From Octopus sinensis (taxonomy: Eukaryota), in the NCBI RefSeq assembly GCF_006345805.1, contig NC_043010.1, forward strand, positions 40,610,001 through 40,674,000: DNA of 64,000 nt, given 5' to 3'. Positions 3,445-59,724 of the stretch are shown here, in pieces. Within the stretch, counting starts at the first letter, position 1; every line of letters starts with the position of its first letter. The position numbers and the translations under genes were made by a program. Below the pieces are notes generated by a model, which saw only the letters and a list, made by a program, of their open reading frames with translations, was not told the origin of the DNA and did not search any database.

Positions 3445-3972
3445 AATATGAAGGCGATAGTGATCGAAAAAGAAAATTACAAGAAACTGGAAGAAATGTG
3501 TGGAGATAGTATTGACCCACCAGAAGTAAGGGTGGAATTCAAAGAATTGCCACCAGTAGTGGATTTAGTAGAAATTGAACCTCTGATGAAATACTACAAA
3601 AAGTAACTAAGTATGTTAAATTGACAGGAAAAAAAAAGAAAAAAGAAAGAGGAGGAAAAAAGAAAAAAAGTAAGAGTAAAGTGTTTTATGTTATGTTTAA
3701 AAAATATTGAAAAACAGAACAATTTTAGAGAACGTACATAACGGTTCAAATAATTGTAATGGTACACGATAATTAATTGTTATGATAAAAACGGTCTCTT
3801 TAAAAAGATTAATGGTAATGCATGTGATGAGGGGCGCATGCAGCCATTCATAACCTCATTGTTATATAGTCATCTCAATCATATTCGTTCTATGTATTGT
3901 CCCCTCTATGGTGTCCTGTCTGTCCTTGTTTGACCCCCTGTATTTCGGGCCCTTGTGGCTAATAAAAAGATC
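3445..3972 (+). mobile_element. 5'-truncated retroposon with Tx1/SINE-A-type 3' tail and short ORF end
   Basis: 16-bp TSD GAAACGAAAA(T/A)CAATT at 3429-3444 and 3973-3988. Tail TGTCCTTGTTTGACCCCCTGTATTTCGGGCCCTTGTGGCTAATAAAAAGA resembles the SINE-A tail. The ORF ends ..EFKELPPVVDLVEIEPLMKYYKK*. Confidence 0.7.
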
Positions 3973-4054
3973 GAAACGAAAAACAATTGCATCATGGAAG
4001 ATGTTTATAAGCCATTTAAAACACACACAAAAACCGTTAGATTCACTTCAACTT

Positions 4055-5313
4055 TTAAAAGAAACAAAAGCGACAAAAAAGGGGAGCGATGGAGTCGTCA
4101 GCCCGAAGAGAAGGAAGAAGGCAAAATCAAGGGAAGTGTTACAGAAAGCGACAGCAGAAGCAGAGAAGACAGACATAAATGATATAGAGCTGCTTGAAAC
4201 ACAAGAAGAGAAAAGACTAGAAGGTGCAAAGTCCAGTGAGTTTAAAAGTGAGCATAAAGGAGTCCTGATTTTTTACGAGAAATCAATAGATGTAGAGAAG
4301 AAAATATCAAAGTGGAAAAATTTGGTGAGAGTGAAACTGGGATCTTTTCGGTTTGAACGGCAGTTTATTCCAGCGGTGCCATATGAAATTGTCACCCATA
4401 ATTATGACCTTAGTATCGATCTATTGCATTTCAATCTGTTTTAGGGTTAGGGTTAGGGGTGGGAGGAAGGGTGTCTTTTTTTCTTCAGAAATGTAAATAA
4501 ACCCAATATGTTTCTTAAATGAAGGACATTTTCATACGGCACAGAATGTTTTCACCTCAATAGACGTCATTGATTGGTTGAAATAGCAGAAATTGAAGAA
4601 AAAAACAACCAATATCTTACAAACTATAGAAGTTTCTCAATACAGCCAAGAGAAAAAAAATGTTTTATAAACACATTCTACAAGTATATGAAGTTTAAAA
4701 ATGTTTAGTTACGTGGAAATTATTTTAAAAACTGCCGGTCAAACCTAGAAGATCCTGAAACTGCCTATGTGGAGGTTCCCAGAGTAGGAAAGGTGTGTGA
4801 TAGTGAGTGAGTCAGCGAGCAACGAACTGTGGAGACATTACAGAGAGTTTATGGCAGGAATGGATGGGCTTGTGTACTATAAGGCAAGGCCGCCGTTTGT
4901 GGACTATGCAAGGCTGGAACATTTCAAGATAGAGAAAATAAATTTGGAATAAACATTTTGGTTGAAAAAAAAATGTGAACTATTTCTGTTAAGAAGAAAA
5001 TTATGAAATTTTTTCGAGAATGTGTTGTGAGAAAAAAAATCGGTCGAGAATGCGTTGTGAAAAATAATGAGAAAAAAGATGAAGAGAAAAAACTGTCTAA
5101 ATGTAACGACTCGACTTCAGAGGTCGAGTGGGCATTCCGCCTCATTGTATCATCTTTTTCATAATTCATTCGTTTCTTTTGGTTTTACTTCTTTTCTATT
5201 TTTATTTTTAATTCCTCGATTTTATATCGTGTCTCGTTGTGTATTGTCTGTACGTGTTGTATTTGTCTTAAATATTTCGATTGTACGTCTGTTAATCGGT
5301 AATAAAAAAAAAC
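4055..5313 (+). mobile_element. Second truncated retroposon with homologous ORF end, interrupted by a MITE
   Basis: Removing the MITE restores the frame ..NLVRVKLPMWRFPE*ERCVIV..VYYKARPPFVDYARLEHFK..*. A T-rich 3' UTR ends in AATAAAAAAAAA. Confidence 0.6.
4340..4755. mobile_element. MITE with 27-bp TIRs and 8-bp TSD (Merlin- or hAT-like)
   Basis: TIRs GGATCTTTTCGGTTTGAACGGCAGTTT / AAACTGCCGGTCAAACCTAGAAGATCC. TSD TGAAACTG at 4332-4339 and 4756-4763. Internal (TTAGGG)3 at 4441-4458. Confidence 0.9.
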
Positions 5314-6444
5314 CGAAAATATTTTGATAAATTCAATTTTAATGTTGAAGTGAATCTAACAGTTTTTGTGCGTTTTTAAATGGCTTATAAACACCTTCCA
5401 CGGTGCAATTGTTTATAATTTAGGTAACATTAATTTCAAATTTTGACGCAAGGCCAACAGTTTCGAGGGAGTGGGCAAAGTTGACCTCGACAGATTTTGA
5501 ACTCAGAATTTACAGACCTACGAAATGCCACTAAGCATTATTGCCCAATAGGATAATGATTCTACCAACTCACCGTCTAATTTTTTTATTATTTTAGATA
5601 ATCAAATAAAATGCAAAGCAAATGTATAGAGACGGACATGGCTGAATAGTTAAAGAATTTGCTTCACAACTACGAGATCTTAATTCGATAAATGCATTCC
5701 CCGAATCTTCGAGATAAGTTACGTACTGTGGATGAATATGGGTAGCCAGACGTTGAATAGAATCACGTCCGACGTACCGTAATGAACGCATGTGTAGTCC
5801 AAACGTGCAGCTTTAATAGCAAAACAATTTTATCACACTAACGTTTCATGACAGTTACATTAAGGGTTCACGTGTTTATGGAATCATCAGCCAGTTCAGG
5901 CTTTGCATTTACTAAAAAACCAGACGCTCGTATACCCAAATAAATGCGAGGGTCTTTCAAAGTAATCTGTCCATATGAATAAAAATATAAATTTTGTGTG
6001 AACGTGAATAAGCAACGAAGTGGTGACACAGCAGATTGTAATTTATTTTTGAGTAACAGAAGTGAGAAGTTTAACTGCGCCCCACTGAGTATCCACCAAT
6101 AGCAACTGAGTATCCAGGCAAGAGCAACTGAGAACAGATGATAATCTTCCTTAAAATGATGAGACACTATTATGAACTGATATTAGACAAATCCTGAACA
6201 TAAAATGTATCGTGCAATTTTTATTTCTTTTATATTTCATAGTTAGGCAGTTTCTTCATTACGTATCAACGTATCATTATATATATATATACAAACTAAA
6301 AGACAGTTGCAATAAGTGTGTGCATATGAGATGGGAATATGGGGAATAAAATCACTATTAACTGATCCTCCTGTAATTTCTTTTAACAAAAGACATGAAC
6401 TTTTCCGACACCCCGGCGTTTATATACCTGGCTGAAGAGTGTTG

Positions 6445-9435: not shown

Positions 9436-10109
9436 GTTAAAGTTTTGTATTAAAAAATAATTAACCGATGATGATCAATTTGTTTGTTGATCAAAATTTT
9501 CTCCATTTTCTGCATATTTCAAATTTGATTCCTGATAAACTCTTGTTTATTTTTATTGCCTGTATACTTTGAGCATAATATACATGCATATGTATGCTCA
9601 GGGGTAACATTGATAATTTATACCAGTAGTAAATCGGACATTCTTATACCTTAGACGGTTTTTCCAACCGCGAAATCAACTTACCTATATATATATCAAT
9701 TCGTTTTGCAAGATTCCTGATGTGAAACCGTGTGTTGAAACGGATATTATAGTATTTAGGAATGGCAATTTTTTTGCCAAATAAATACGTGCAATGTATA
9801 TTTTTTCTTCGCTCGTTTATTAGTATTCTTATAGAGTAAGTGGAAGAAGAACACACATGAAAGCAACAAGCGTCGTTGAAGAGGTCAGAGATGTGTGACG
9901 AAAGATTTCCGCACAATGGACATGGGTTGAAATAATAAAATAAAATCAGTAATAAAGGAATGAAGAAAAAATATATATAGTGCGTGTGTTTATTTGGCAA
10001 ATAAATGACCATCCCGAAATACAACAATATATATATACATGTGTGTGTGTGTGTCTGTGTTTGTCTGTATACATATATGTGTATATATGTATATATATAT
10101 ATGTATATA

Positions 10110-10291
10110 TTTCTTTACTACCCACAAGGGGCTAAACACAGAGGGGACAAACAAGGACAGACACACGGATTAAGTCGATTACATCGACCCCAGTGCGTAA
10201 CTGGCACTTAATTTATCGAGCCTGAAAGAATGAAAGGCAAAGTCGACCTCGGTGGAATTTGAACCCAGAACGTAACGGTAGACGAAATACG
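10110..10291 (-). mobile_element. SINE family A body and tail (host of the Tx1 LINE)
   Basis: Matches 43321-43548 from the (C/G)GTATTTCGTC site onward. Part of its head resumes at 15634-15658. Confidence 0.9.
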
Positions 10292-10529
10292 AATTTCTTT
10301 ATTGCCCACCGGGGGCCAAACATAGATATGGACAGTACAACTGATGGGATCAGTGAATCGATATGATTTTACATAAATGTGACATCAAAAATAAAATACA
10401 ATACATAAAAATCGAATGGAATACACAGTACAAAAACAATACAAATGAAGCGATGATCAAGTTACGCTCCGATCCCACAAGCCCCGATCTACCGCTGATA
10501 CCTTTTTATTTTTCCATTTTTTTTTTCCT

Positions 10530-13500
10530 CGTCTATTCACACGGTTCCTTGCACGCACAACACTCGTGCAACATACTTCCATCTCTTTTGGAACGTACAC
10601 TCTGACAGACACCTCTTCTCCAGCCACAGTTTCCTTTTCAAATGAAAAGAAAAAAAGGATCGTAAATTGTCACCAGAGATAAGTTGACTGTCTTAATTCC
10701 TTTTATCCTAGTATTCCATACAGCCTCTTTTGCTATTGCTACAACCGTGAGAAAACAATTCTTACCTTCGTTCGTTAGAACTCCCGGTGGGTCAATTTTT
10801 ATAATTGACTCAGTCGACAGCCGTACTCTTCCTTCGCCGGACAACAGATGTTCAGCATAAGCCCACATTTCAGTTATCTCCGGACACTGAACAATAGCGT
10901 GAGGGACGGTTTCCCTGTCCCCACCGCATCTTGGACAGGTCGGCGACTGACGTTTACCATGTCTTGCGAGCTTATCCCAAACGGGCAAGGCACCTCTGTA
11001 GCATTGCCAGGTTAAGGACATTTGGAAGTTGTCCAACGTTCTCAAACCGAATGTACGATGAAACAAGCTGTCCAGTTGAATAAATCTGAGACCTAGAGTC
11101 GACCCCAGGCCATCGTCGCATTCAGACTCTACCAACCCACTATATAAAATCCGTGTGGAACCCCCACCGCTGGCGTTGCCCGAGCGCCGGAACAGCAAGA
11201 GGGCCTTACGGCACTCTTTATGCCACTCACTCGACCTCGGTCTACGAGAACACCAGGCTTCCTGTTCGCAAAAACTCTTGAACTCAGGAAACATTGTCTG
11301 GCCAGCGGAGACCACACCCGTTCACTATCCAGGAGAATCCAGAGGTGCCTCAACCTCAACGCATGTCTGCGCATCATTAACCAAGGCATCCCTAAACCTC
11401 CATTTAAGGCTTTGACAGCAGACAGAGCGTTTCACAAGTGGCGACCTGCCCTTCCACAAAAAGCGAAAGAGCTGTCTCTCCAACCTGATCAACCACGAAT
11501 CCGGACAGGGCACGACAGTCAGGCGGTAGGTAATGACCGATGCGGTAAACAACTTGGCCACTTCCGCCCTCCCTTTCAGGGATAGCCACCGCCAAGACCA
11601 AGTCTTGACTACTGCAGCCACCCTGCTCAATACCTCCGTCCAGTTCTCTCTATCTGGAGGCCTGGTCCAAACCAGACTCCCAGCAACTTAACCGGTCCCT
11701 CCGTCCAGCGCCTAACAACACTGTCTGAAGGCATCGACTTGCCAACCCAGGTGCCGAGCTGCAAGCCGACCGACTTTTCCCGGTTAATCTTTGCTCCTGC
11801 TACCTCCTCGTAAGCCTCAATAGTCTTACCTACTTCACGTAGGCGTACCACTGTGGTTACACTGATAGTGATATCATCCGCGAAAGCCGTAACAAACTCC
11901 TCTAGTCCTGGTTCTCTCGGGATGCCACTCAACCTTTGCAGTAATGGCTCGAGAGCCATCACATACAAAAGTGTGTGAAAGCGGACATCCTTGACGAACC
12001 GAGCGTCTGATGCAGAACGGCTTCGAAAGGAAACCGTTCACCCGAACTATCGAGTCAATGTTGTGGTACAAAGCGATAACCACCTGAGGAAGCCAAGGCC
12101 CAGGCCAAACCGCGCAAGTACAGTCGCTAGGTATCGATGGTCAACCCTATCAAAAGCTTTAGACTGGTCCAAATGCACCAATGCCCCACCTTTGCCAGAT
12201 TTATTACCAAACCTCTCTATGGTATAGCGAATAAGATGGAGGGTATCCTGAATGGTTCTGCCTGGGATGGCCTCCCCGACTGTGCCTCCCCGACTATACC
12301 ATTCGCGACACGCGCCAACCTTTTTGCTAGAACCTTGGCCAAAATCTTCACTTCTGCGTTTAACAGAGTGATGGGCCTGAAATTCTCTAGAACGTCCCCC
12401 TTGTCCGGGTCCTTTCTGACCAACGTCACTACTCCCCGGCGCACAGATGGGGATAAACCCATTCTGTTTCCAGTTCGCGTACACGTCAGTCAGTAGTTGC
12501 CCGAACAAGTCTGGCATACATTTATACAGCTCGTAGGAAGACCATCAAGTCCCGGTGACTTACCCGCTTTACAATCGGCCAAAGCCTCCATCACCTCCTC
12601 AAGTGTGATTGGCCCTTCGCAAGACTCCGCATCCGACCCCGAGAGGCACGGCAGCCCGGTAAGAAAGTCCTCGAGGGCTCTCCCACCACCAGGACCGCCG
12701 TCACCCCCGAACAGCTGGGCGAAGTACTCCCGAAAGACCTCACACATTTTCTCGGTTCGTTTATCAAGACACCATTTTGATTCGTCAAAGACCGAATAGA
12801 GGAACTATTTCCTTGCCGAGCTTCCACCACTCGGGCCCATCCAGCGGCTTTGATTCCTTCACTTCCCATTGCACGTAACTTAGCTCTGGTAATACTTCCC
12901 ATGTGGTGGGCTTCAAGATGCTGGTTTAACTCCAGTCTTTTCACCCTCGCTTGGTCTGTATTACCAGTCCTCCAGGCTTCTTCTAGTTCCTTAACTAGAC
13001 CATCTCCTATTTTACGTCCCTTCTTAGCTAAACTTATGCTAAACCTAATAGACTCATATTTGATGGCTCTTTTTAGGGCGTACCACCATTTGTTATTAAT
13101 GATGGTACCTGTTAATGCCCTCTGTATTAACATCTTGATCCGCTTTCTGTACTCCTCAATCGCCAAAAGGGACGTATTGAGTTTCCAGTAGCCAGATCCC
13201 TGTCTATGCAACTTATCTACCGTCAGTTTACAGGTAACCATCTTGTGGTCACTGTAGCTGACTAGAAAAAACTGTGGACACTCAACTATGGACTTATCTT
13301 TTTCTCTAATTAAAATCCTATCTAGATATGTTCTGGTAGACCCGTCACTATTTGACCACGTCCACTGTGGAGTGTTCGGGTGCTCCAACCTATATGGATC
13401 TGCTAGCTGAAATTGACTTAGCAGATCCCGAAAGCCTGTGTTACATTTTCTGTTCATGTTCGAGTTTGAGCCAACACAATCTGTGTGTGCTGCACATATT

Positions 13501-13922
13501 GTATTAGAGTCTCCTAACACTACTAGTGAATGCGACGTGGCTAGGAACTTTCCTAGGCCACGAAAATATTCAGTTTGCGGGCCAATAATGTTTGGTGCAT
13601 AAATAGCGACCAGCCTGATTGTCTTGCCACAACTGAATGTCAAGTCGAGAACGACCAGCCTGCCTTCTGGGTCAGAAAAAACCAACTTTTTCTCGGCTAC
13701 CCGGTTTCTTTTTAGTAGGACCAACACCCACCCCGCCCGACTCGGAGAAACGTATTTCTCGTAGCCGTTCAGGAGGGGGAGCAGATCTCTTGGCCCCTTC
13801 ACCCGGGTTTCCGTTGCAACAATTACATCCAAATTTCTCGACCTGATGTCATTCAGAAAGCGTACTTGCTTCCAGCTTGACAACAGGCCATGAACATTTA
13901 AACAACCAATGTGAATAGCCAT
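10530..13922 (-). pseudogene. Tx1/L1 ORF2 (AP endonuclease + reverse transcriptase + CCHC), frameshifted
   Basis: IGCLNVHGL, VATET, AIYAPN, LGDSN, YLDRI, YSDH, GSGYWKLN, KSPGLDG, NFRPITLLN, LDQSKAFDRVDH, VRQGCPLS, AFADD, CPRCGGDRETVPHAIVQC across ORF pieces. 3' boundary approximate. Confidence 0.92.
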
Positions 13923-13933
13923 CACTTACCTGT

Positions 13934-15447
13934 TTAATTAGGATTGTCCGGTGGAGGGGGACCCTCCACCTTTTTTTTATCCAGGGTCGGAGGTGGACGG
14001 TCTTGGGAAATAGATTTGTCAAAATCCCGTCTCACCACCGACACAGAATTATCAGGTGGAGGGGGAATCTCCACCTTTTCCTTTTCTCGCGGGATCGGAG
14101 CTGGTAATCCATGAAATATCGACTTGTTAAAATCTAATCTCAATGAAGATACAGTCTTTCTGTACTTATTTTGTAGAATTCTATAAGTCTTATTTTGAGA
14201 CTTCATATATGTCGTAATTGATAAATTCCTCTGAAAGGTTATCAATTTTTTTTACAGTCTTTATGAGTTGAATGTCTCTCATGAGCTCAGTATTTAGTGT
14301 ATACGGCTATTATGCCTTTTTCTTCTTTTTCTCTCTGGCAGTCTTTTTTGGTCGTTGTTCTGTAGTAGTCGCCGCTCTCGGCTGGGTTGCTGGTTGTATT
14401 TTTCTTTTGTTTGTTGTTTTTTTCTCATCTGTTTCTTCTTTATCTTCTCCTCTTTGTCTTTTTTCTCCTCTTCCTCCTCTTCTTCATTTCCTTGCAGTTC
14501 CTTCGAATGTGGCCTAATTGACCACAAAAAAACATCGAGGTTTTCGGCCCTCAACAAACACCACGAGGTTCTCCTCCCCTACCTCAATTGTCTCAGGAAT
14601 TGTTTGAATTATTTTAGGGTCCGCTTGAATGAGAAGATTAATTGTTTTACCATCCCAGCGTGGGTTTTCCGTAGCGGTAGCCTGGAGGAGAGTAATTTTT
14701 TCTACCTCTTTGATTAGGACTGCCGCCAACAACCACATAGGTTCGACCTCTGGCGGGACCCTTGTAATTTTTATTCGCGACGTCCTCATCCCCATATAAT
14801 AGGGTATTAACTCCACGTCGTTCGTTTTCAACGTTTCCACTGAGTTCTTGTGTGCTATTTCTTTATTGGTGAACCTTACTTCCACCGTTCCGAATTTTTT
14901 TCCTCTTCTCAGAAATACTACGTCGCCCAATATTGGCTTTAAGCACTTTTCTATTTTCTCTTCTGACATTCTTTCAATTTTTCTATTTTGTAGACAATAT
15001 GTTTTGAAAATTATTGTTTTTTGCTTTTCTTCCTGTAATAACTTTTGCGGAGGTTCAATTTTCACACTGTTGTCATTTATTTCCATCATTTTGCTGTATT
15101 TCATAATTTCGCTTTTATTCGTCGACAGTATATTGGGTTCCACCCCCAGCAGCCAACGCAAAACTTTTTTTTTCCTTTCTTTGGTTCTATCTGGATGCTA
15201 GGCACATCAATTATTCTCTTCGACACAATGCCTTGGTTCTCTGGCAAAGTCGGAAACTCTTCTGGTGAAAGTTCTGACGAGCTCTCAGACACATCTCCAA
15301 AAATATCAAATATATTATCCTCTCTGCTATTCCTTCTTGTAGCGGGGGAAACCCCTATTTCCTTGTCTGTAGTTGCTCCTCGCCGGACATGTATTTCCTC
15401 CTCTCAACAGGAGAAACAAGTATTTCTGCTCCAACGGTAGGCTCCAT
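13934..15447 (-). pseudogene. Tx1/L1 ORF1 (RRM-like region + zinc knuckle), frameshifted
   Basis: RTSRIKITRVPPEV and VFVEGRKPRC. Adding one T to the T-run near 14530 gives CFFCGQLGHIRRNC (CX2CX4HX4C). Lys/Glu-rich tail and a twice-repeated PPPPDN unit. Confidence 0.85.
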
Positions 15448-16282
15448 GCTAGACGACATTCTTCCCCCCAAAGGGGGAATGAACAACGCGTGCTACCACA
15501 AGCACTAAGTGTTTTCAATTGAAAACTCCAACAGTTAAGTTATTCAAAAGTTTAACAAGAAACAACAGTTGTTAACAATATTAACACCACGAAACAGCAA
15601 TTCTTACTTCACGAACACATGTGCGACAGACTGAATACGGCTACGCATTTCGCCCGGCGGTATTATTAAATTAATATCTAATTTTTCACCCTCATTTATG
15701 AATATATATATAAATATATATATGTGTGTGTGTATATATATATATGGTTAGATATTGATATATGCGGCGAGCGTTTTCAGTTTCCATATACCAAATCTAC
15801 ATACAAGGTCCGAGCCTCTAGTAGAAGACACTTGCCCAGTGTGCCATGCAATACAGCTGTACCCGGAACCATGAGGTTGAGAAGCAAACTTCTTACTACA
15901 CTCTTATACTAATATCAGGCTGCTGAAAAATATTCGAACCTTATGATAGTTTCAGTATGATTAAAGTAAATTAAATTAAACGCATAGATTAAAAACAAAA
16001 TTCAGAATAAATTACAAAAAGAAATACTTTAAAAAGTGATAAAAATAATCAAAAGTATTCAAATTACGTATTGTTAAAATTTACATAATGCTGATGGAGC
16101 TCGAGTCATTCATGTTACTTTTATTTCTGTTACTAAATATTAATTGGTGCTTTTGTTAGTAGAGCCGCCATTATTATGGTGTTCTTTATTACAATACAAA
16201 TCATTGCCACAGTCTTTATTTCTACTACTACCACTACTACCACTACCACCACCACCACCACCACTACTACTGCTACTGAGAA

Positions 16283-20699: not shown

Positions 20700-22907
20700 T
20701 ATATATATATATATGTGCGTGTGCGCGGCGATGTGAATAATACTGAGTTAATGTGGAAAATTAAAATGCGTCATCAAACATTTATAAGCATATTTTCTGT
20801 GTAATTAATTTGTTTCACTTCTTAACGTAAAGGAACAATAGCTTTATTCTGTGTATTTATAAGTATGAAAATAAAAGTATAAGCATAAAATCATGTTTAC
20901 AAATGTAAAAATTCGGGTAATTTGTTTACATCTTATACTTTAACCGAAAATATTTTGGTGTTCATATTCATAAACTAAGTTTGACAGGCATAACACAAAA
21001 GAAAAGGAAAGAAGGGGAAAACGGTATCACATGTGGCTTCCAAGTCTTTTGTGTTGAGAAGTTTTGTTATATACGTTTCGCTGTTCGTTTTGGCTAAAGG
21101 AGGCTTCCGTAGTAGAAGCAAAATGTCATGTGTTACTGAGTAAGAAATTGTTGAGGTTGATATTGATCTTTTTCGAAATTTGTGGTAATTTTCCCATCTG
21201 TGAAAGGCATATGTAGATTATTGGATTAAGGATGCAAAATCAAAACAAAACAGGCAAGATTATTCATGAAGTATTTGGCTACTAAATATATTATGAATTA
21301 TTTTACATATTTTGTTTTTGCACTCAAAACGTAATTGATAGCCTATCCAGCTACGGATTCCGGTTGAAAGAAACCCGGACTATGGTACGAATACAAAAGA
21401 CAGCTTCATTTTGAAGTTCAAACTACTGGTTACTTGTCATACAATTAACGTATAGTGTATGTCTTTTACTTATTTCTGTCATTAGACTGCGCAATGCTGG
21501 AGTACTTTAGTCAATTCATTTGATCCAATACACTTTTTAAAGCGTGGTAATAATTCTATCGTATTATTTGGCCAGAAGGCAAGTTACGTGGACGTCAACA
21601 CACCAACACCGGTTCTCAAGCGGTAGTAAAGGAGAAACAAACACGCAATGACACACATAAATACATACATACATATTATATATATATCTGCATACCTATA
21701 TATGCAGATATATATATGTATATATAAAAACATTGATTAGAGAACAAACATCAAATCCAGGCCAACGATTTTATATATATATGTGTGTGTGTGTGTGTGT
21801 GGTGTATGTGTGTGTATGTGTGTGTGCATGTGTAATATATATATATGTGCGTGTGCGCGGCGATGTGAATAATACTGAGTTAATGTGGAAAATTAAAATG
21901 CGTCATCAAACATTTATAAGCATATTTTCTGTGTAATTAATTTGTTTCACTTCTTAACGTAAAGGAACAATAGCTTTATTCTGTGTATTTATAAGTATGA
22001 AAATAAAAGTATAAGCATAAAATCATGTTTACAAATGTAAAAATTCGGGTAATTTGTTTACATCTTATACTTTAACCGAAAATATTTTGGTGTTCATATT
22101 CATAAACTAAGTTTGACAGGCATAACACAAAAGAAAAGGAAAGAAGGGGAAAACGGTATCACATGTGGCTTCCAAGTCTTTTGTGTTGAGAAGTTTTGTT
22201 ATATACGTTTCGCTGTTCGTTTTGGCTAAAGGAGGCTTCCGTAGTAGAAGCAAAATGTCATGTGTTACTGAGTAAGAAATTGTTGAGGTTGATATTGATC
22301 TTTTTCGAAATTTGTGGTAATTTTCCCATCTGTGAAAGGCATATGTAGATTATGTGGATTAAGGATGCAAAAATCAAAACAAAACAGGCAAGATTATTCA
22401 TGAAGTATTTGGCTACTAAATATATTATGAATTATTTTACATATTTTGTTTTTGCACTCAAAACGTAATTGATAGCCTATCCAGCTACGGATTCCGGTTG
22501 AAAGAAACCCGGACTATGGTACGAATACAAAAGACAGCTTCATTTTGAAGTTCAAACTACTGGTTACTTGTCATACAATTAACGTATAGTGTATGTCTTT
22601 TACTTATTTCTGTCATTAGACTGCGGCAATGCTGGAGTACTTTAGTCAATTCATTTGATCCAATACACTTTTTAAAGCGTGGTAATAATTCTATCGTATT
22701 ATTTGGCCAGAAGGCAAGTTACGTGGACGTCAACACACCAACACCGGTTCTCAAGCGGTAGTAAAGGAGAAACAAACACGCAATGACACACATAAATACA
22801 TACATACATATATATATATATATCTGCATACCTATATATGCAGATATATATATGTATATATAAAAACATTGATTAGAGAACAAACATCAAATCCAGGCCA
22901 ACGATTT

Positions 22908-26979: not shown

Positions 26980-26984
26980 TTTAC

Positions 26985-27500
26985 CCTAGTGCGTAACTCG
27001 TACTTATTTAATCGAGCCCGAAAGGATGAAAGGCAAAGGCGACCTCGGCGGAATTTGAACTCAGAACGTAACGGCTGACGAAATACCTATTTCTTTACTA
27101 CCCACAAGGGGCTAAACACAGAGAGGACAAACAAGGACAGGCAAACGGATTAAGTCGATTATATCGACCCCAATGCGTAACTGGTACTTATTTAATCGAG
27201 CCCGAAAGGATGAAAGGCAAAGTCAACCTCGGCGGAATTTGAACTCAGAACGTAACGGCTGGCGAAATACCTATTTCTTTACTACCCACAAGGGGCTAAA
27301 CACAGAGAGGACAAACAAGGACAGGCAAACGGACTAAGTCGATTATATCGACCCCAATGCGTAACTGGTACTTATTCAATCGACCCCGAAAGGATGAAAG
27401 GCAAAGTCGATCTCGGTGAAATTTGAACTCAGAACGTATCGGCAGACGAAATACTGCTAACCATTTCGACCGGCGTGCTAACGTTTCTGCCAGCTCACCG
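26985..27500 (-). mobile_element. SINE family A array: one head, three bodies
   Basis: On the minus strand each tail ..GTAAAGAAATA is followed directly by GGTATTTCG (junctions near 27088 and 27272). Confidence 0.92.
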
Positions 27501-27699
27501 TCTTATATCTAACTATCTTTCTATCCATCTGTCTACCTACCTACCTATCCATTTATCTAAATTCTTTCCATTGCAGCTTATTCTCATCAGTTTTCATGAA
27601 CTTTTCATTGGTAACTTTCAACCGTTCATTGGCCAATATTACATGCCTTACTGTTTGTATTAGTTGTCTTAGCTTTAAACAGTTACTGTTACTTATGCC

Positions 27700-30472: not shown

Positions 30473-32015
30473 ACGTACGCATGGAAGCACACGCCGTACA
30501 CAGTCTGCGACTAAGACAGAATCATTCTACAACTTTATTACAACGATTCTTTTGACACCACTTATTGAGCGCCTTATTATATGCTCCGAGTCTATATGGA
30601 CGAAACTAAACGTTGAGAGTTAGAGGCGAGTTAGTTTAATTAAGTTAGAATACATCCTATGTTAGTTATGTGCAGCATGCAGTTTTTCCTTTGTCTTTTT
30701 CTCGCCGGAATTAATCCTATATATAGATTTCCGTGAAATAGATGAAGAATCGTCAATAAGGTTGCGTAACTACAGCCTCTTCTATTAGCTTTTCAAAGCC
30801 TGCCACAGGTTTCGCGCTATCTTTATGAGAATTGGACAGTTAATATCTTTATAGCCCAGACTTCCACCGTTACAGTAAGCTGGAAGATATAGTGAACGTA
30901 AACACTAAAAGTATTATTAAATTTATTAATTACTTAGACACAAATGATCCCGAGAGAACGATGACGTGATCGGTCACTCTGCCAGATATAGCAATTTAGG
31001 TTTTTCATAACTTACGAGCATGTTTTTAAATATCTCTTCCACTTATAAATGGTGATAACATGCTTATAAATGGTAACTACCTTTCACCTTCTATCTTTTA
31101 TTTGTTTTGGCATGCAGGGTTTTAGTCGGACAACTCGACTCCAGGACTTATTTAAAAAAAACAACTACTTATAATATCGGTTTGTTTTGCCGAACTCGGT
31201 TGTCAAACGGTGTTGAGGGACAACACACATACACACACACACACACACCACACACACACACATACAACGTACGCATGGAAGCACACGCCGTACACAGTCT
31301 GCGACTAAGACAGAATCATTCTACAACTTATTACAACGATTCTTTTGACACCACTTATTGAGCGCCTTATTATATGCTCCGAGTCTATATGGACGAAACT
31401 AAACGTTGAGAGTTAGAGGCGAGTTAGTTTAATTAAGTTAGAATACATCCTATGTTAGTTATGTGCAGCATGCAGTTTTTCCTTTGTCTTTTTCTCGCCG
31501 GAATTAATCCTATATATAGATTTCCGTGAAATAGATGAAGAATCGTCAATAAGGTTGCGTAACTACAGCCTCTTCTATAGCTTTTCAAAGCCTGCCACAG
31601 GTTTCGCGCTATCTTTATGAGAATTGGACAGTTAATATCTTTATAGCCCAGACTTCCACCGTTACAGTAAGCTGGAAGATATAGTGAACGTAAACACTAA
31701 AAGTATTATTAAATTTATTAATTACTTAGACACAAATGATCCCGAGAGAACGATGACGTGATCGGTCACTCTGCCAGATATAGCAATTTAGGTTTTTCAT
31801 AACTTACGAGCATGTTTTTAAATATCTCTTCCACTTATAAATGGTGATAACATGCTTATAAATGGTAACTACCTTTCACCTTCTATCTTTTATTTGTTTT
31901 GGCATGCAGGGTTTTAGTCGGACAACTCGACTCCAGGACTTATTTAAAAAAACAACTACTTATAATATCGGTTTGTTTTGCCGAACTCGGTTGTCAAACG
32001 GTGTTGAGGGACAAA

Positions 32016-34428: not shown

Positions 34429-35107
34429 GTGTCCCTAACATCGTTTGAAAACCGATGCTGGTGTGTTTACGTCCTAGTAAGTTAACGATTCGGCAAAAGA
34501 GACCGAGATAACAAGTACTAGGCTTACAAAGAATATGTTTTGAGGTGGTGCTCCAGCATGGCAGCAGTGAAATAATTGATACAAGTAAAAGAGAGAAAAG
34601 AGAGTATATGTATATATACATATATACACATACATACATATATGTATATATGTGTGTGTGTGTGAGTGTGTGTGTGTATGCATGTGTATGTATATATATG
34701 GATGTACATATACATATATGTGTGTGTTTGTGTGTGTGTATGATGTACTCTTTTTTTATGTATTCTTTCTTCGCACTGAGGAGAACAGTAATATGTTTTT
34801 TTATTATATTATAATTAAATTAATTTTTTACCTTGTTGTTTACACGTTAACATTACCGTTCCAAACGATGGTATGCATTGATTTTTTTAAAACTTATAAC
34901 ACCTCCTCTCCATCTTTAATTGTTTGTTTTCAATAGGATACGTGTTCTATAAATGATCTGAATACACTATATACTTGTAACATTTTCATATTCGAAAAAT
35001 ATTTACTACAGTAAGCTACTAAATCTATATGAAAAATCTTTGTAAGAAATCAAACTTTGCTCCCCCCCCCCAAAAAAAATTAAAGGATTACATAAAACTC
35101 AACCTTT

Positions 35108-35406: not shown

Positions 35407-35480
<74 letters not shown>

Positions 35481-35485
<5 letters not shown>

Positions 35486-38400
35486 TTAGATAAAAACTTA
35501 GTTGATTGGTCCAGGCCATGTCTAACTTAATAGCACCAGCTGATAGGATTATTTGAATCCTGTTTAATTCAAGTTTTATTTATGGTCCATTCAAATAGTG
35601 AGTTTTTGGTGGGTGAGTTGTATCCAATTATGGGTGGCTTGTCTGGTATAACTTGAAGGAATCTATCCAGACTCCGTTTAAAGTTGATGGGATCCGGTTC
35701 CTCTTTGATCTCTTTCGGGACAATGTTAAATAGGGCAGAGCCTGTTGAGAAAAAGAAATTATGTTGTAGTGTACATGTATGCTATGATCTTGAATTGGGC
35801 AGGGGACGTATGACCCGTGGTCCCAGTCTTGGATGAATCTTGAAGCTAATGTTCAAGTCGTTTGGGCAAAGTTGGCGGTATATTCTCCACATCGTACAAA
35901 TGACGTACCACTCACAGCGACGCTGGAGAGAGTAGAGTTTCAAGGCTTTAAGGCGAACCCAATAATCGAAAGCAGCCATGCCTTCAATTCGTTTAGTGAG
36001 TGCTCTCTGGGGTGATTCAATCCTCGAGATGTTTTGTCTTGTATGGGGAGACCACAGTGGGCAGCAATATTCAAGGTGTGGCCGTACAAAGGAGGAGAAA
36101 AGTGGTATGATGACACCTTGTTCTCTGGACCGGAAATTTCTTAAGATCCAGGAACTCATCCTACGAGCCATATCGACCTTCTTGTTGATGTGTGCACTCC
36201 AACTGAGATCGTCATCAACAATTACACCCAGGTCTCTGATATTGTTAGAGGCTGTGAGCGGTTCCCCCGAAGGAAGAGAGTATGGTTGTTTTAGTGAGGA
36301 ATTTCTTCCAAAATGCATCAGCTCAAATTTTCCCTCGTTCAGTTGCATTTTATTTCTGTCTGCCCATTGACTCACAGCATATAGATCAGACTGGAGTTGA
36401 GTTCGGTCTGCTTCTTCATTGACGATTTGCTGGAGCTTAGTGTCATCAGCAAATATGTTCACTTTGCAGTAATGTACGACACTGGAAAGGTCGTTTATGT
36501 AGATTATGAAGAGTAGCGGACCCAAGGCAGTCCCCGAGGGACACCGCTGGTGACTTTTGCTGGGCTTGAGTGGACTCCATCCACTACAACATGTTGTGTT
36601 CTATTCGCCAGGAAATACTTGATCCAGTGTAGAACTTTTCCGCGGATTCCAACATTTGCCAATTTTGAGAGTAGGATATTATGGTCTACCCTGTCGAACG
36701 CTTTACTGAAGTCAAGATATATGACATCAGAGTTCGAACCTGTTCCCAAGGCTTTGAGTACATCTTCAATGTGGTGTAAGAGCTGTGTTAGACAGTCCCT
36801 GCCACAGCGAAAGCCATGCAGATTTGCATTTAGGAGTTTGTGGGTCTCCAGGAAGTCAGCTATCCTTGATCTTAACACTCTTTCAAACACTTTGATGAAG
36901 TGGGAGGTGAGTGAGATTGGGCGATAGTTGAGTGCGAGGGATCTGTTTCCCTGTTTGAAAACCGGGATGACTGACTGGGATAGAAACTGTTTTGGTATAT
37001 AACCTGCATCTAACGAATTTCTCCAGAGGTTGGTCAGAGGGACTGCAAGTTGGTGTCTACATTCCTTCAGGAGACTAGCCGGGAATCTATCAGGACCTAC
37101 AGCAGAGTAGTATTTGACCTCATTTATTGCTGCTGTGATGTCAGTGGCAGTGAAGGTTATGTCTGAAATTTTATGTTGGGAGTCAACTTCGTTCGCTTCT
37201 CTTGCGTCAATATCAGTGGGAACACTAAAGACAGAGCAGTATTGTTTCTGCAGTATTTCTGCCATTTCTTTAGCATCGTGTTGGGGAATGCCGTTATCAT
37301 CAATCAATGGCCCAATGGGTGAGACAGTGGTTCTATGCTTATTTGCATAAGAATAGAACACTTTTGGGTTCTGTTTGATGTTTTTGATTACCCACTGTTC
37401 CTCCACAGCTCTTTGATTTTCAATGGAGGTTTTCATGTCGTTCTGTAGATGAAGTTTTTCCAGCTCTAGCATTTTCATTGTTGTTGAATTTGGATGTTGT
37501 ATGTGGGAATATTTTAATTGGTTGATTTTTTGTTGAGTCTTTTGATGCGCCTGATGAGTGTTTTTTTTTTCTTTTAAGAGAGCCGGTTTCTGTTTGTGTT
37601 AGTAGATTTCGTGGGAGCGTGTTTAGAGCATGTTTTCAAAGTGCTGCCATGCGGTCTCAGTATGGGTGGAATTGAGAGTAAAAGACTAGTCCATGCAAGA
37701 CAGATCCTTTCTGATTGCTCCCCAGTCCGCTTTGTGGAAGTTTATGTTGTCAAATGAGTGCCATGGAGTGGGATTGGCTGGTTTGGTTTTTATATGTCGG
37801 GAATTGAAATTGCAGAGTATCATGTCGTGGTCTGAGAGGAGAGTTTTTTCAACTGAAATACTGTGAACGAAGCTAGAGTGATTGGTCAATACCAGATCCA
37901 AGATCGTTTTATTCTGTCTCGTTGATTCGAGCACTAGCTGAGTCAGGAAGTATTCATCCATTAGATTAAAGAGCAGTTCTGCTGCTGCTCTATCTGACGT
38001 AGAGCATTTGCCTAACTTCAGAGATTTTGTGGGCCAGTTCACCAGAGGGCGGTTAAAATCACCCATCACTAGTATGTTTCCGGAGTGGTACTTCCGAAGG
38101 AAGGACTTGACTTTACTAAGGCACTCTTCAAAGCACTTTAGAGGTGCTTGGGGAGGCCTGTAAAGACCAACAATGATTATGTCCTTGGCCTTGCTGAATA
38201 GTGATACAGATTCACAATAGCCATTGGAAAATATGTCCTTGGCATCAAGTGAAAAGGAGTCATGGATAAAGATGACTGTCCCTCCCTTATTTCGGTCTGT
38301 GCGATCCGCACGAACAATAGTGAAATCTTTTATTTTCACCTCGTCGTCCATATGGCTGTTGTTCAGGTGAGTCTCGGTAAGGATCTCGGTAAGGATAAAG

Positions 38401-38505
38401 AAAGGGAAGCAATGTGCCGTTTCGGTAAGCCAACTCTCTATATATGGGATCTTCCATTTTTGGGCAATAATTGATGGGTTGATGCCACGTACATTTAACA
38501 GGAAG

Positions 38506-38508
<3 letters not shown>
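35481..38508 (-). mobile_element. 5'-truncated CR1-group LINE (APE + RT), frameshifted
   Basis: LLNVRGI, GLYRPP, MGDFN, LDLVLTN, LSDH, NYRPISLTS, VIYLDFSKAFDRVDH, LFIIYINDL, IFADDTKL, RPHLEYC..WSP. 3' end (CTAAGTTTT)2. (TA)n on both sides. Confidence 0.93.
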
Positions 38509-38553
<45 letters not shown>

Positions 38554-41052: not shown

Positions 41053-41270
41053 TATATACATGTGCGTGTGCTTGTGTGTCTGTGTGTCGCCTGGCAACCT
41101 ATGCTGGTGTATTTACGTCCCCGTAATCTGGAGGTTCGGCAAAAGACACCGATAGAATAAGTACTAGGATTACAAAGAATAAGTCCTGAGTTTCATTTGT
41201 CCGACTAAAGGCGGTGCTCCAGCAATACTGCAGTCAAATGGACTGAAACAAGTTAAAGAATAAAATAATA
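40865..41270 (+). mobile_element. SINE family D with internal microsatellite
   Basis: Colinear with the reverse complement of 59513-59948. (TA)/(TG) core at about 41013-41088. Confidence 0.85.
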
Positions 41271-41754
41271 TGAAGAATATATATGTGTAATAAAATATTC
41301 ATAAAATACATCATACAATTCGGCTAGACAAATGTAGATATACCATATAAGTAAATACGATAAATCAGGGAAAGGAGAAAGATAGAAATGTTACAAGAGA
41401 CCAAAATAATAGAATCATACATATATAACAAGCTTATATAGTTAATGAAGTAGTACGTTATGGATAATACCCTAGGGATAGACAAATGCAAATTTTAATG
41501 AAATCAATTCGCCATAAAATATAAGTATCGTGTAGGATGGTGTACACGGTTTTATGCTTGTATTATCCGCACAATAAAGTTGTTATGGAAATACATTGAC
41601 ATACAGACATAAATAAACAAATGAATATACATATATATACATATACCTGTATATATACATGTATATACCTATGTATGTATGCATATGTAGGGGTGGTTGT
41701 ATATATCATTGTATGTGTAGAGGTGCATGTATACATAATTATATAGACAGATAT

Positions 41755-42559: not shown

Positions 42560-42930
42560 CCCTCTTTCCGCACATTTTTGTTGAATGCTGCCAAAAGGCA
42601 TGACAGCTTATCTGCATTAACTGTTCCATTTTAGTTTAACACTTTATGGTATACAACAGCCTTTATATTCCAATTTATAATAGACAACACCCTTTATATC
42701 CCACCAAATGTCTTTTGAGTGTAGTCCTGGTCTTGCAATGGGTGCCAACCATTGTCGTTTCCGTTGGATATGATTAGGGAGAATCGACTTTTTATCACTT
42801 GTAATGATTCTACCCAAGATACGTCCGATGGCAGCTGTACACTCCAACGTATTAAATTTTTTATTAAACTGAGAAGAAATCAGGTAATCAGAGATCCACT
42901 CACCAAGTCTGGACACATTTCCTAATTCAT
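42560..42930 (-). pseudogene. mariner (DD34D) transposase remnant
   Basis: LGRIITSDKKSIL..HIQRKRQWL..RPGLHSK..IWWDIKGVVYY resembles ITGDEKW..KRQW..PGLHPKK..WWD. Confidence 0.8.
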
Positions 42931-42945
42931 GAAACTTGTCTTGAA

Positions 42946-44282
42946 TTGAACTGCATCAGAGATAATTTTGAAGCATACAGAACTGTTCAAAACGTTAGTA
43001 AGCAACGCTCTGGAAGACCACGAACATCCACCAGCCGTAATGGACACAACAAATTAATGGAAACCTTTTCCCGATCCACAAAGAAGTCCGTAAGACAAAT
43101 GAGTCGTGATATAGGAATCCCAAAATCGAGTGTTCATTGGATGTTGAAACGAGCTCATTGGAAAAGTTACGATCCAACATTAATTCAAACCTTCAATGAA
43201 GATGATCCTGATCGGAGAGTTCAATATTGCGAATGGTATCTGAATAAATTCGCAGAGGATGCAACGTTTCCAGAGAGAATCATATGGATCGATGAGGCCA
43301 CCATCAAGTTAAATGGTTCAGGCGGCGAGCTGGCAGAAACGTTAGCACGCCGGGCGAAATGCTTAGCGGTATTTCGTCTGCGTTACGTTGTGAGTTCAAA
43401 TTCCGCCGAGGTCGACTTTGCCTTTCATCCTTTCGGGGTCGATAAATTAAGTACCAGTTACGCACTGGAGTCGATGTAATCGACTTAATACTTGTCTGAA
43501 CTTGTTTGTCCCCTCTGTGTTTAGCCCCTTGTGGGTAATAAAGAAATAGGTTCAGCCAACCGACATAATTGCACATACTGGGCTCGTGAAAATCTACATT
43601 TTAATATGGAACACCATCTGAACTTACCAGGCGTTACAGTGTGGTGTGGGATGTCAACATTGGGTATCGTTGGACTTTTTTTTTTTTTTTTTTGACCAAA
43701 CTGTCAGTGGACCAGTTTACTGAAACTTACTGATGGAAAATGTCGGTCCACGAATTGAAGAGGTGTTTGGGGACGAGGAGATTTACTTCAAGCAAGATAG
43801 AGCTCCTTCTCACTACTATCGTGATGTACGGACTTACCTCCATGCAACAAATTCAAACAAATGGATTGGGAGGAGAAGTAGCGTTGACTTTCCTGCACGT
43901 TCCCCAGACCTCACACGAATGGATATTTTTATGGGGACATCTCAAAGATAAGGTTTACGCTGCAAAATTGATGATTCGAAAAATAAAATTCGAATACAAT
44001 GAAATGTTTGGCAATGTTGTTGTTGAATCCATTGTTGGACGTTATCAGCTTTGTTTGGAAAACGAAGGAAGGCAGTTTGGACATTTGCGAACACGCAGAA
44101 ATGAGAGAGAACATTAAATAATTCTAAATGACAATAAATAATCGTTTCTACAACAATATATTTTCCTGAATTTAATTTAACTTTTTAGGATTGTATGTAT
44201 ATCAATAAACATCTACTTGAACACAAATTACATGAGTACTGGGAAGTCAGAGAGTGAATACGTCTTTTTGGGACACCCTGTA
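42946..44282 (+). mobile_element. Tc1/mariner (rosa/DD41D-like) element, decayed and interrupted by a SINE
   Basis: [22 protein letters not shown]|[50 protein letters not shown]. Right TIR ..TTTTGGGACACCCTG-TA. Confidence 0.88.
43321..43548 (+). mobile_element. SINE family A, full length with Tx1-type tail (tail A)
   Basis: A box TGGCAGAAACGTT, B box GAGTTCAAATTCC, central GCCTTTCATCCTTTCGGGGTCGATAAA domain. TSD GGTTCAG at 43315-43321 and 43549-43555. Confidence 0.93.
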
Positions 44283-51077: not shown

Positions 51078-51403
51078 AAACAATTGCAGCGTGGAAGGTG
51101 TTTGTAAGCCATTTAAGAAACACACAAAAGCCGTTCGATTCGCTTCAACATTTAAGTTTAATTTGTCAAAATATTTTCATCGCTAAAATCCGCGACCTGT
51201 TCACTGACAAAAATCCGCCAGTGAACAGGCCGCAGATTTTAGCGCTGAAAATATTTTGACAAATTAAACTTAAATGTTGAAGCGAATCGAACAACTTTTG
51301 TGTGTTTCTTAAATGGCTTACAAACACCTTCCACGCTGCAATTGCTTTCGTTTCAGCACACGATCTCAGATCAAATTACTTGCTATGCGAGTACATCTCC
51401 GTA

Positions 51404-52894: not shown

Positions 52895-53200
52895 TTAAGA
52901 TTTCGCACAGTATCCAATGTCGTGATGTTCTCGATTGAAGATATTGTGTCTAGCGGGGGTTTGTACTGTCTATCAAGTCACAACAAGTACTTTAGACAGA
53001 CAGTACTTTACGCAGTATGGGCGCAGCTCGAAGTAATGCCGATTTTTGCAATACACCTAGATTGTAGAGTACTTCTAAAGTTTCCAGATGTTTCTTCAGG
53101 GTGGGTGGTTTTGAACCGAATGCTCCGATTACAACAGGGACAACTGTTCTCTTTCTTTCATGATAATATCCTGATCTCCTGGCATTGCACTTTTGTTTGT
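52895..53200 (-). mobile_element. R4/Dong-type LINE 3' fragment
   Basis: TVVPVVIGAFGSKPPTLKKHLETLEVLYNLGVLQKSALLRAAPILRKVLSV*. The 3' UTR runs into (AAC/AAT)n at 52743-52894. Confidence 0.8.
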
Positions 53201-53239
53201 TCCTCCTAAAGGTTACTATATCCGGCCTTCGGTGCTCTT

Positions 53240-54085
53240 ATTTTTATCATGTGCTTTCACTGCACTACCGAGCGCAGCTGTGTGTACTTTGGCTATGCGC
53301 TGTCGTTTGTTGTGATGCTCTTATTTTCACTGTATTGAAAGTGTTTTACGTACGATGTGTGCAGTGCCTAGTAGTGCTATTTTCTGTATGTTATATATAT
53401 TTATAAGTCCTGGTGTTCTTGCTATGTATTTGTCTAAATTTTTTTGTCAGACCTAATGCGCCTATTATAATAGGAATTGTTTCTGCTTTTAGGCTCCAGC
53501 TTCGAGTTACCACTATTTCTAGATCTTTGTATTTTGAAAGTTTTTCCGTCTGTTTTAGAAAAACCTTGTCATCTGTTGTTATTGATAAACCGATTAGAAA
53601 ACATTTTTTTACTTTATGATCTCTGACGACTATATCCGGCCTATTGGCCTTAACTTCTCTATCTATGTATATTGACATATCCCAGAATATGGTTGCTTTC
53701 TCATTTTTTTTTACCTTTTCTGGCATGTGCATATACCATCTATTTTCTGTTTATTTTCCATAGGGTAAGCATAGCGTCCAGTGAATATAGGTCCCAACTC
53801 TGTCGTGTCTGTGAATATATTCCTTCTTAGCCAGAACCGGGCAGCCAGAGACAATATGATTTATTATTTCTTATCCGTCACCACATATTCTGCAGTTAAT
53901 TGTTGTATTTGTTTTCATTATATGTTTTGGGTGATTTCTGGTTGAAAGGCTTTGATTTTGTGCTACAATTAAAAATCCTTCAGTCTCTGCTTTGAGTCCT
54001 GAGCTTCTCAACAATTGTTGGGATTTCGCTTTGTCTATTTCTCTTCTGTTTAGCTTAACCCAATATTTGCCATGTAGGGGCTTTA
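53240..54085 (-). mobile_element. R4/Dong-type LINE 3' fragment with RLE domain
   Basis: KPLHGKY, GLKAETEGFLIVAQNQSL, CRICGD, HIVSGC, RHDRV, IFWDMSI.IDREVKANRPDIVV, KLSKYKDL, IPIIIGALG, IQKIALLGTAHIVRKTL. Begins at (TAA)n 54086-54162. Confidence 0.9.
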
Positions 54086-54162: not shown

Positions 54163-54164
<2 letters not shown>

Positions 54165-54548
54165 TTGTACTCTAAGCACAAGGCCCGAAACTTTTAGATA
54201 GGCAGCCAGTGGATAAGATCGACACCAGTGCACAACTGGTACTTAATTCATTGACCCCGAAAGGATGAAAGGCAAAGTCGATCTCAGCGGAATTTGAACT
54301 CAGAACCTTAAGATAGACGAAATACCTATTTCTTTACTACCCACAAGGGGCTAAGCAAAGAGAGGACAAACAAGGACAGACAAACGGATTAAGTCGATTA
54401 TATCGACCCCAGTCCGAAACTGGTACTTACTTAATCGATCCCGAAAGAATGAAAAGCAGAGTCGACTGCGGCGGAATTTGATCTCAGAACGTAGCGGCAG
54501 TCGAAATACCGCTAAGTATTTTGCCTGGCGTGCTAACGTTTCTGCCAG

Positions 54549-54552
<4 letters not shown>
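54163..54552 (-). mobile_element. SINE family A dimer: tail-A copy inside a copy with a different tail
   Basis: Junction AAAGAAATA|GGTATTTCGTC near 54327. The distal copy ends GGGCCTTGTGCTTAGAGTAC. Confidence 0.88.
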
Positions 54553-58859: not shown

Positions 58860-59368
58860 TAATGGTTTCAAATTTTGGCACAAGGCCAGGATTTCGTGTG
58901 GAATAAGGAAGTCAATTACATTAACGCCATTGCTCAACTTTGTCGATCCGAAAAAAGCCAAAGTCAGAATAAGCACACACACACACACACAGGCACACAC
59001 ACCATGCGAAGTTTCCCTACCTTACAAAGGCCTCAGATTTACTGGTGCTTAATTTATTGAACCCGAAAGGATGAAAGGCGAAGTTGACCTCGGTGGAATT
59101 TGAACTCAGAACGTAGCGACTGGTTAAATACTTGTTTCTTTACCATCCACAAGGGGATAAACACAGAGAGGACAAACAAGAACAGACAAACGGATTAAGT
59201 CGATTATATCGACCCCAGTGCGTAACTGGTACTTAATATATCGACCCCGAAAGGATGAAAGGCAAAGTCGACCTCGGCGGAATTTGAACTTAGAACATAA
59301 CGACAGACTGGTTAAATATTGTAAATCATTTCGCCCAGCGTGCTAGCGATTCTGCTAGCTAGCCGCCT
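58860..59368 (-). mobile_element. SINE family A dimer with 15-bp TSD
   Basis: GACTGGTTAAATA(C/T)T at 59118-59132 and 59306-59320 flanks a tail-A copy. The host has tail B at 58860-58935. Confidence 0.88.
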
Positions 59369-59512
59369 ACCGAATTTTTTTGTGATGAAAGTAATAACTA
59401 AATGCTAACTTTTCTCTTATTTTAAAAAGGAAAATTCCCGGTGACCGTGGTATGGTTGGTACATCAGGTGGATTGAATAACAAAGTATTTGGTTTAATAT
59501 AGCTGTGTATAC

Positions 59513-59724
59513 TATTTTACTCTTTTACTTGTTTCAGTCAGTTGACTGCGGCCATGCTGGAGCACCACCTTTAATCGAGCAACTCGACCCCGGGACTTAT
59601 TCTTTTGTAAGCCCAGTACTTATTCTATCGGTCTCTTTTGCCGAACCGCTAAGTGACGGGGACGTAAACACACCAGCATCGGTTGTTAAGCAATGCTAGG
59701 GGGACAACCACAGACACACAAACG

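Follow-up and report, generated by a model that had tools for sequence, protein, structure and literature searches.

Target-specific LINEs are known to insert into RNA genes, microsatellites and DNA transposons. Within the Tx1 clade, excerpts of the published accounts place Tx1 in Tx1D, Keno in U2 genes, Kibi and Koshi in microsatellites, Mutsu in 5S genes and Dewa in tRNA-Leu spacers (PMC4494074, PMC4640811, PMC3706591). The closest precedent for the arrangement described here is the crocodilian pair SINEU-3 and Tx1-Mar, which, according to the excerpted text, have in common a preferred target inside another transposon (PMC4494074). For SINEU-3, the same excerpt gives an expected duplication of 16 nt and sequential insertions that lead to tandem copies around the duplication (PMC4494074), and co-transcription from the target is proposed in it (Kojima 2015, PMC4494074). 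In the excerpted account of R2Ol, RNA with target sequence at its 3' end inserts more efficiently, and the addition of target sequence upstream served to favour full-length insertion (PMC6530143).

SINEs of molluscs are described, in excerpts of three reports, as combining a single head and body with different LINE-derived tails and as forming arrays in which a single full head is followed by head-truncated units (PMC4758252, PMC4824008, PMC11481361). These excerpts put tail exchange and arrays down to template switching or recombination. The partners listed for bivalve SINEs are CR1, CR1-Zenon, L2 and Nimb, and the term Tx1 does not occur in the text of that report (PMC11481361). Octopus genomes are described, again in excerpts, as having abundant SINEs together with L1-Tx1 LINEs (PMC8967140, PMC13282606). 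By literature search, no report was found of a LINE or SINE that targets a SINE's own head in octopus, although Repbase Reports and subscription papers may hold one. Ohshima and Okada reportedly described the tRNA-derived octopus SINEs OK, OR1 and OR2 in 1994, and the SINE sequence analysed here looks like that of an octopus SINE.

The window analysed here is a stretch of 64,000 nt from Octopus sinensis (NC_043010.1, positions 40,610,001 to 40,674,000). It holds two related types of SINE, ending in tail A or tail B, and an L1-group LINE, and copies of the tail-A SINE as well as the one LINE copy are found at one and the same nucleotide between the A and B boxes of SINE heads. The target of SINEU-3 and Tx1-Mar is, in the excerpted text, a Mariner element, whereas the target here is the SINE's own A/B-box head. 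Likewise, the SINEU head is derived from snRNA and no LINE-matching tail was found for SINEU-1, whereas 40 nt are common to the octopus SINE and the LINE 3' end. Unlike SINEU-3, the octopus SINE insert would restore the promoter that it interrupts. The octopus LINE resembles the target-specific Tx1-clade LINEs in that an APE-endonuclease LINE is found at a fixed site in a multicopy sequence; a tRNA-type SINE head is not named as a target of those LINEs in the excerpts, and membership of the octopus LINE in the clade is putative. R2Ol, as excerpted, provides a model for the steps of upstream annealing and fresh-target formation considered below, with the differences that the endonuclease of R2 is restriction-like and its target is rDNA, and that the homology is here built into the SINE.

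A nested SINE with a duplicated target at 59 kb

The 59-kb element (58864-59367) is oriented on the minus strand, on which its modules follow one another as head, 15-mer, body, tail A, 15-mer, body and tail B. The head of the host SINE (59321..59367, 47 nt), with an A-box-like motif at 59347-59357 and the tail-B-type base at a diagnostic position, leads into the left target copy of the host (59306..59320, 15 nt), the final 3 nt of which (GTC) form a microhomology join with the insert. The inserted SINE body (59193..59305) is headless, carries its own B-box-like motif at 59279-59289, and is followed by its tail A (59133..59192), of which the last 40 nt are the part that matches the 3' end of the LINE. 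The right target copy (59117..59132 in a 16-nt register, at offsets -25 to -10 from the B-box anchor) then leads into the host body (59041..59116, with a B-box-like motif at 59095-59105). The host body is interrupted by an unrelated, unstranded insert of 101 nt (58940..59040) with AGT repeated at both ends, beyond which the remaining host body and tail B (58864..58939, with tail B at 58864-58907) are followed by ATTA. The A- and B-box-like motifs in the SINE were identified by eye. This analysis confirmed the nested order given in an initial annotation of the sequence, which did not mention the host's own interruption at 58940-59040. The 101-nt insert contains a (GT)n stretch, and its non-repeat parts were found to have no second copy within the 64-kb window.

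The two copies of the host-specific 15-mer, GACTGGTTAAATACT at 59118-59132 and GACTGGTTAAATATT at 59306-59320, were both present as annotated and were identical at 14/15 positions. The 15-mers were compared to a majority reference, defined as the column majority across 10 other copies of the target position; 4 B-box-anchored copies with an indel or heavy decay in the target and one spurious anchor were left out of this comparison. Five non-majority bases, at target positions 1, 8, 9, 10 and 12, were common to both 15-mers, and only 0-2 of the same five were detected in each of the 10 other copies. In addition, a search of both strands of the window with up to 1 mismatch allowed gave no further match to the 12-nt core of the 15-mer. 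A match of the 15-mers by chance is ruled out by this unique core and the five private variants in common.

The two bodies at 59 kb differ at 10/72 positions and have zero non-majority bases in common, with the inserted body 3/72 and the host body 7/72 off the majority. Since variants of the 15-mer are common to both copies and variants of the body are not, what was duplicated is a short piece of the host on either side of the insert, and not the unit as a whole. The 59-kb structure is an insertion with target duplication and not a tandem duplication. Simple tandem duplication is ruled out by the different tails and the absence of any common variant over the 72 nt of body, and the initial annotation was right both to argue against it and to propose a SINE-in-SINE insertion with a target duplication at this locus, where the 14/15 match includes five private variants. 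The inner copy meets the left 15-mer through the 3-nt microhomology (GTC), 4 nt out of register, and the duplicated stretch amounts to 12-15 nt depending on the source of GTC. A start that is joined by microhomology and out of register is the pattern expected for a 5'-truncated retrotransposed copy. Further signs of insertion by TPRT at 59 kb include the direct repeat of the host, an intact 3' end with full tail A, and a truncated 5' end.

An L1-group LINE at the same nucleotide

The strongest evidence for targeting, absent from the initial annotation, is a LINE at the same site. This L1-group (Tx1-like) LINE of ~5.3 kb (10292..15623, minus strand) is composed of ORF1, ORF2 and a 3' end matching tail A, and is positioned at the same nucleotide as the 59-kb insert, here in a tail-A host SINE. 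Upstream of the LINE lie a 5'-truncated SINE head and the left target copy (15624..15659, minus strand; head at 15640-15659, 20 nt, and target at 15624-15639). Downstream lie the right target copy (10276-10291) and then the host SINE body and tail A, the whole occupying 10108..10291 on the minus strand. The two 16-nt target copies flanking the LINE are identical at 12/16 positions and have in common a non-majority C at position 1.

ORF2 was found to encode APE endonuclease, RT and zf-RVT domains (PF03372, PF00078, PF13966; Pfam); it is broken by at least 3 frameshifts and is collinear with relatives of 1,145 aa. All PDB matches of the LINE (9/9) were to L1 ORF2p or L1 endonuclease constructs, including human L1 ORF2p (best E 4e-13). 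ORF1 had no significant Pfam match, and a CX2CX4HX4C knuckle was detected in it across a frameshift near 14525. A CCHC knuckle in ORF1 is a feature of the Tx1 clade. By its domains and its nearest matches, which are L1, the LINE is assigned to the L1 group; the putative Tx1 label is drawn from the CCHC knuckle and the targeting and not from comparison with named Tx1 sequences. Homologue searches with the LINE returned unnamed relatives or endonuclease clusters only, with no named close relative. One of the Atlas clusters is mostly molluscan among the 3 of its members that have a record.

The last 40 nt of the LINE match tail A at 32/40 columns, and none of the shuffled sequences was as good (0/500). 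This similarity covers the last 40 nt of the 60-nt tail A, at 80%, and for this reason the true partner of tail A may be a sister LINE family. The description of tail-A copies as Tx1-mobilisable, made in the initial annotation, holds as to the link between tail A and an L1-group LINE (32/40) and is putative as to Tx1 identity. On the plus strand at 3917-3971, a tail-A-like end (42/51 aligned columns) was observed that has no SINE body and adjoins a copy of an 80-nt repeat. The T-rich sequence before it weakly resembles the LINE 3' UTR (10/500 shuffles as good), and 3917-3971 may represent the end of a sister LINE with greater similarity to the 5' part of tail A.

Tail ends and SINE multimers across the window

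When tail ends were counted with profiles built from these same window copies (6 + 8 seeds), 8 tail-A-like ends (LINE included) and 9 tail-B ends were found in the window. Five of the 8 tail-A-like ends (59133, 54327, 27272, 27088 and the LINE end) abut the target between the A and B boxes, and all five junctions have the same offset and the host's orientation. The proportion is 4/7 for the non-LINE ends. By comparison, 0/9 tail-B ends in the window adjoin the target, and most of these run into ATT-type repeats. The difference between tail A and tail B at the target gave a Fisher p of 0.019, or of 0.044 with the trimer described below counted once. Given that the 64 kb contain 15 SINE bodies, an insertion would strike the target nucleotide by chance with a probability of ~1.2e-4; the junctions represent at most 4 independent events at one nucleotide, with one LINE copy, in a single 64-kb window. 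The three off-target tail-A-like ends (3/8) are at 43548, at 10108, where a TA-rich repeat comes next, and at 3969, in a divergent piece with a T-rich upstream region. Based on these three ends and a 6-7-nt duplication at 43 kb, the specificity is not strict.

Two further multimers have the same junction. A trimer at 26983..27503 (minus strand) is ordered as a head, two successive units of body, tail A and target, and a truncated body, with a period of 184 and the same junction twice. Its units differ at 8/168 nt, compared to 13-22 between loci, and both of its tail A copies are identical; as the units are more alike than the loci, the trimer was counted as one event. A dimer at 54164..54552 (minus strand), ordered as head, body, tail A, target, body and tail B, is located inside an (AAT)n tract and has the same junction nucleotide and a head of the tail-A type. 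Its target copies differ at 4/16 positions with no non-majority base in common, and its inner body is 10/72 off the majority compared to 6/72 for the outer body. The initial annotation had ascribed to 54163-54552 the same layout as at 59 kb. The order of modules is indeed the same, but with no common target variants and a tail-A-type head, neither a host-derived duplication nor head capture is shown at 54 kb.

A full-length tail-A monomer was found on the plus strand at 43321..43548 in a non-SINE site, a Tc1/mariner-like transposase remnant (42868-44117, plus strand; Atlas 0.94) that it interrupts. The monomer is flanked by GGTTCA at 43315-43320 and 43549-43554 (6 nt, or 7 including the next G), and the transposase frame resumes once the SINE and a single copy of the 6-nt duplication have been passed. 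No PDB match was detected for the remnant.

Three decayed SINE copies are arranged head to tail at 2459-3040 (minus strand), the first two with tail B and with short ATT/A-rich spacers between copies. Neighbours with tail B first, which the initial annotation named as grounds for refuting its reading if equally common and with random junctions, are seen in the window (2.46-3.04 kb), but their downstream head is intact and they are joined by an ATT-rich spacer. This cluster is ordinary clustering and differs in kind from the nested tail-A junctions.

Head types and head capture

The A-box diagnostic position was found to be A in 3/3 heads on tail-A bodies (27, 43 and 54 kb) and T in 4/4 tail-B-only heads (2.8, 5.5, 34 and 52 kb), an association of head type with tail type with a Fisher p of 0.029. 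The 59-kb head has T at this position and, therefore, belongs to the host, in agreement with the initial annotation. Judged from this base and the module order, head capture is structurally real at 59 kb, the sole locus that displays it, with a host-type T head over a headless tail-A body; it is not shown at 54 kb, the second example in the initial annotation, where the head is of the A type. The associated phrase "converting tail-B SINEs" was overstated, as only the 47-nt head changes hands and hosts include tail-A copies, among them the SINE that harbours the LINE (10108-10275), such that hosts are not exclusively tail-B. The putative mobilisable unit would be the host's 47-nt head together with the incoming body and tail A, i.e., a head swap. 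No further copy of the marker of this chimera (the 15-mer core) was detected within the window.

Probable targeted insertion into SINE heads

The tail-A SINE and the L1-group LINE are found at one nucleotide between the A and B boxes, and the LINE endonuclease probably cuts this site and copies either RNA into it. The junction is fixed, the 3' end is common to SINE and LINE, the duplication at 59 kb is host-specific, and the head over the inserted body is of the host type. In the mechanism that we propose, the LINE protein would nick the bottom strand where the target begins and would prime reverse transcription on the tail A of any RNA, and copying of SINE or LINE RNA into the site would duplicate ~15-16 nt. 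Owing to the homology between an incoming SINE and its target, the cDNA of that SINE would pair with host DNA upstream. An early join would give a headless insert with the host head retained, a visible duplication and microhomology, as at 59 kb; a late or seamless join would replace the host's head with the incoming one and hide the duplication, which is possible at 54 and 27 kb. By bringing its own B box, a SINE insert would rebuild a putative A-box/B-box pair, the gap between boxes being 57 nt at 59 kb compared to 52 in the 43-kb monomer, and a LINE insert would part the A and B boxes by 5.3 kb. Each insertion would leave a fresh target copy, such that arrays could grow.

The SINE strand at 59 kb has no T run of at least 4 before 58956, the first being a T6 run at 58951-58956 within the 101-nt insert, and on this basis a predicted Pol III transcript of about 410 nt would pass tail A into the host body. 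It would end before tail B, within the 101-nt insert that arrived later, and such a read-through RNA would have target sequence downstream of tail A, an arrangement that increases insertion efficiency for R2Ol (PMC6530143). At 54 kb, a T4 run in the first body (54455) could end Pol III transcription early. Internal T runs of at least 4 are absent from the SINE strand of both the 27-kb trimer and the 43-kb monomer.

A wider reading, which we offer tentatively and regard as doubtful, is that the SINE is self-targeting: its insertions would rebuild the promoter, leave a target, feed precise insertion and shuttle heads between two lineages, while LINE inserts would disable promoters. Were this the case, read-through RNA would have target sequence on both sides of tail A, and two head-exchanging SINE lineages would be served by different LINEs. 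For read-through dimers with tail B at their end, mobilisation by the partner of tail B is an equal possibility, and this may be the history of the 54-kb dimer.

If targeted insertion is correct, the LINE would target the promoter of the very SINE family by which it is borrowed, and a loop would be closed. It would provide a site-specific, insertion-based route to the exchange of SINE modules, which is usually ascribed to template switching or recombination. The LINE would also join the candidates for an APE endonuclease with sequence specificity, here for a target present in abundance. Nested insertions would then make up many of the SINE "dimers" and 184-nt tandem repeats of the genome, with consequences for repeat libraries and age estimates.

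Alternatives to targeted insertion

The off-target site at 43 kb starts GGTTC, like the target's GGTATTTC, and Tx1-clade elements are described in excerpted text as targeting multicopy RNA genes and their spacers (PMC4494074, PMC3706591). Both observations fit an alternative in which the endonuclease has a loose preference for a motif starting with GGT, or has true tRNA genes as its target, with SINE heads as abundant look-alikes. We consider this unlikely, as 5/8 tail-A-like ends fall at one SINE nucleotide and the heads no longer score as tRNA, so that no tRNA target was matched. This alternative is compatible with cutting of SINE heads by the LINE endonuclease and alters only how special the targeting is.

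A master dimer, with tail A and then tail B, could also have arisen once and been moved as a unit into (AAT)n tracts by the partner of tail B. The 59-kb junction makes this improbable, since it is private (with its 4-nt offset and five duplicated host variants), and the LINE at the same site is not derivable from a dimer. Because its junction is private, the 59-kb element is also not a dimeric family in the SINEBase sense, i.e., one amplified as a unit from a master copy. The case for a master dimer comes from 54 kb, where (AAT)n is present on both sides of the dimer, as for the 34-kb tail-B monomer, and where the head is of the tail-A type and no target variants are common; read-through is also possible, as judged from the 27-kb trimer and 43-kb monomer that lack internal T runs. 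A master dimer may still account for 54 kb.

It is very improbable that the arrays were built by tandem duplication at the DNA level or by unequal recombination between SINE copies, as proposed in bivalves, where excerpted text attributes arrays of one full head and then head-truncated units to unequal recombination (PMC11481361). At 59 kb just 15 nt are in common, the tails differ and the bodies have no common variant, and recombination leaves unexplained both the LINE at the same nucleotide and the complete tail A at every junction. The similarity of the 27-kb units and the identity of their tail A copies favour recombination, and such a process likely accounts for the second 27-kb unit only. 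Template jumping, by which the tail-B partner would copy tail-B RNA, stall near the target and jump to the 3' end of tail-A RNA, yields a full tail-A unit and then a headless tail-B unit as at 54 kb and belongs to the usual proposal for SINE module exchange in excerpted reports (PMC4758252, PMC4824008), but it predicts variable junctions and no internal duplication and is highly implausible given five junctions at one nucleotide and the 59-kb host variants on both sides.

Tail partners, tail folds and other repeats

No convincing match was found between tail B and the ends of the L1-group LINE and a CR1-like element (best: 14/500 shuffles as good), with 14-474 of 500 shuffles equally good in comparisons of tail B to this LINE, or between tail B and two R4-like ends (best: 38/500 shuffles as good). 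The broken LINE at 35480-38552 (minus strand), which we take to be CR1-like, has endonuclease (PF14529) and RT domains and a 3' end that matches neither tail. Two apparent LINE 3' fragments at 52896-54085 (minus strand) are embedded in the (AAT)n/(CAA)n tract that separates the SINEs at 52 and 54 kb; no significant Pfam match was detected for them, their ends do not match tail B, and an ETEG-type motif suggests R4/Dong.

Tails A and B (e.g., 27089-27140 and 58866-58915, minus strand) both terminate in a small hairpin, by prediction, whose loop is CTTGT. A stem with this loop was present in the predicted folds of 3/6 tail sequences, and the predicted fold of the LINE end had a stem with a CCGGT loop; none of these exceeded shuffled sequences in stability (z -0.84 to +0.34). 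As to tRNA identity, ARAGORN made no call for the SINE heads, nothing in the window reached an Rfam gathering score, and Rfam hits around the two SINE copies tested were at chance level only. Three motifs from the window were absent from the MetaSINE supplement.

An unclassified repeat of ~80 nt is present in four copies, 84-90% identical, at 3981-4059, 5337-5414, 51078-51155 and 51270-51354, the last two of which form an inverted pair with 115 nt between them. Another abundant family of short repeats was observed at 59500-59700, starting ~130 nt beyond the 59-kb head, and in 7 more places (2092-2178, 21462-21621, 22596-22756, 31121-31195, 31913-31986, 34434-34593 and 41095-41271). Hits of this second family come in pairs at 21.5/22.6 kb and 31.1/31.9 kb, which points to local duplications.
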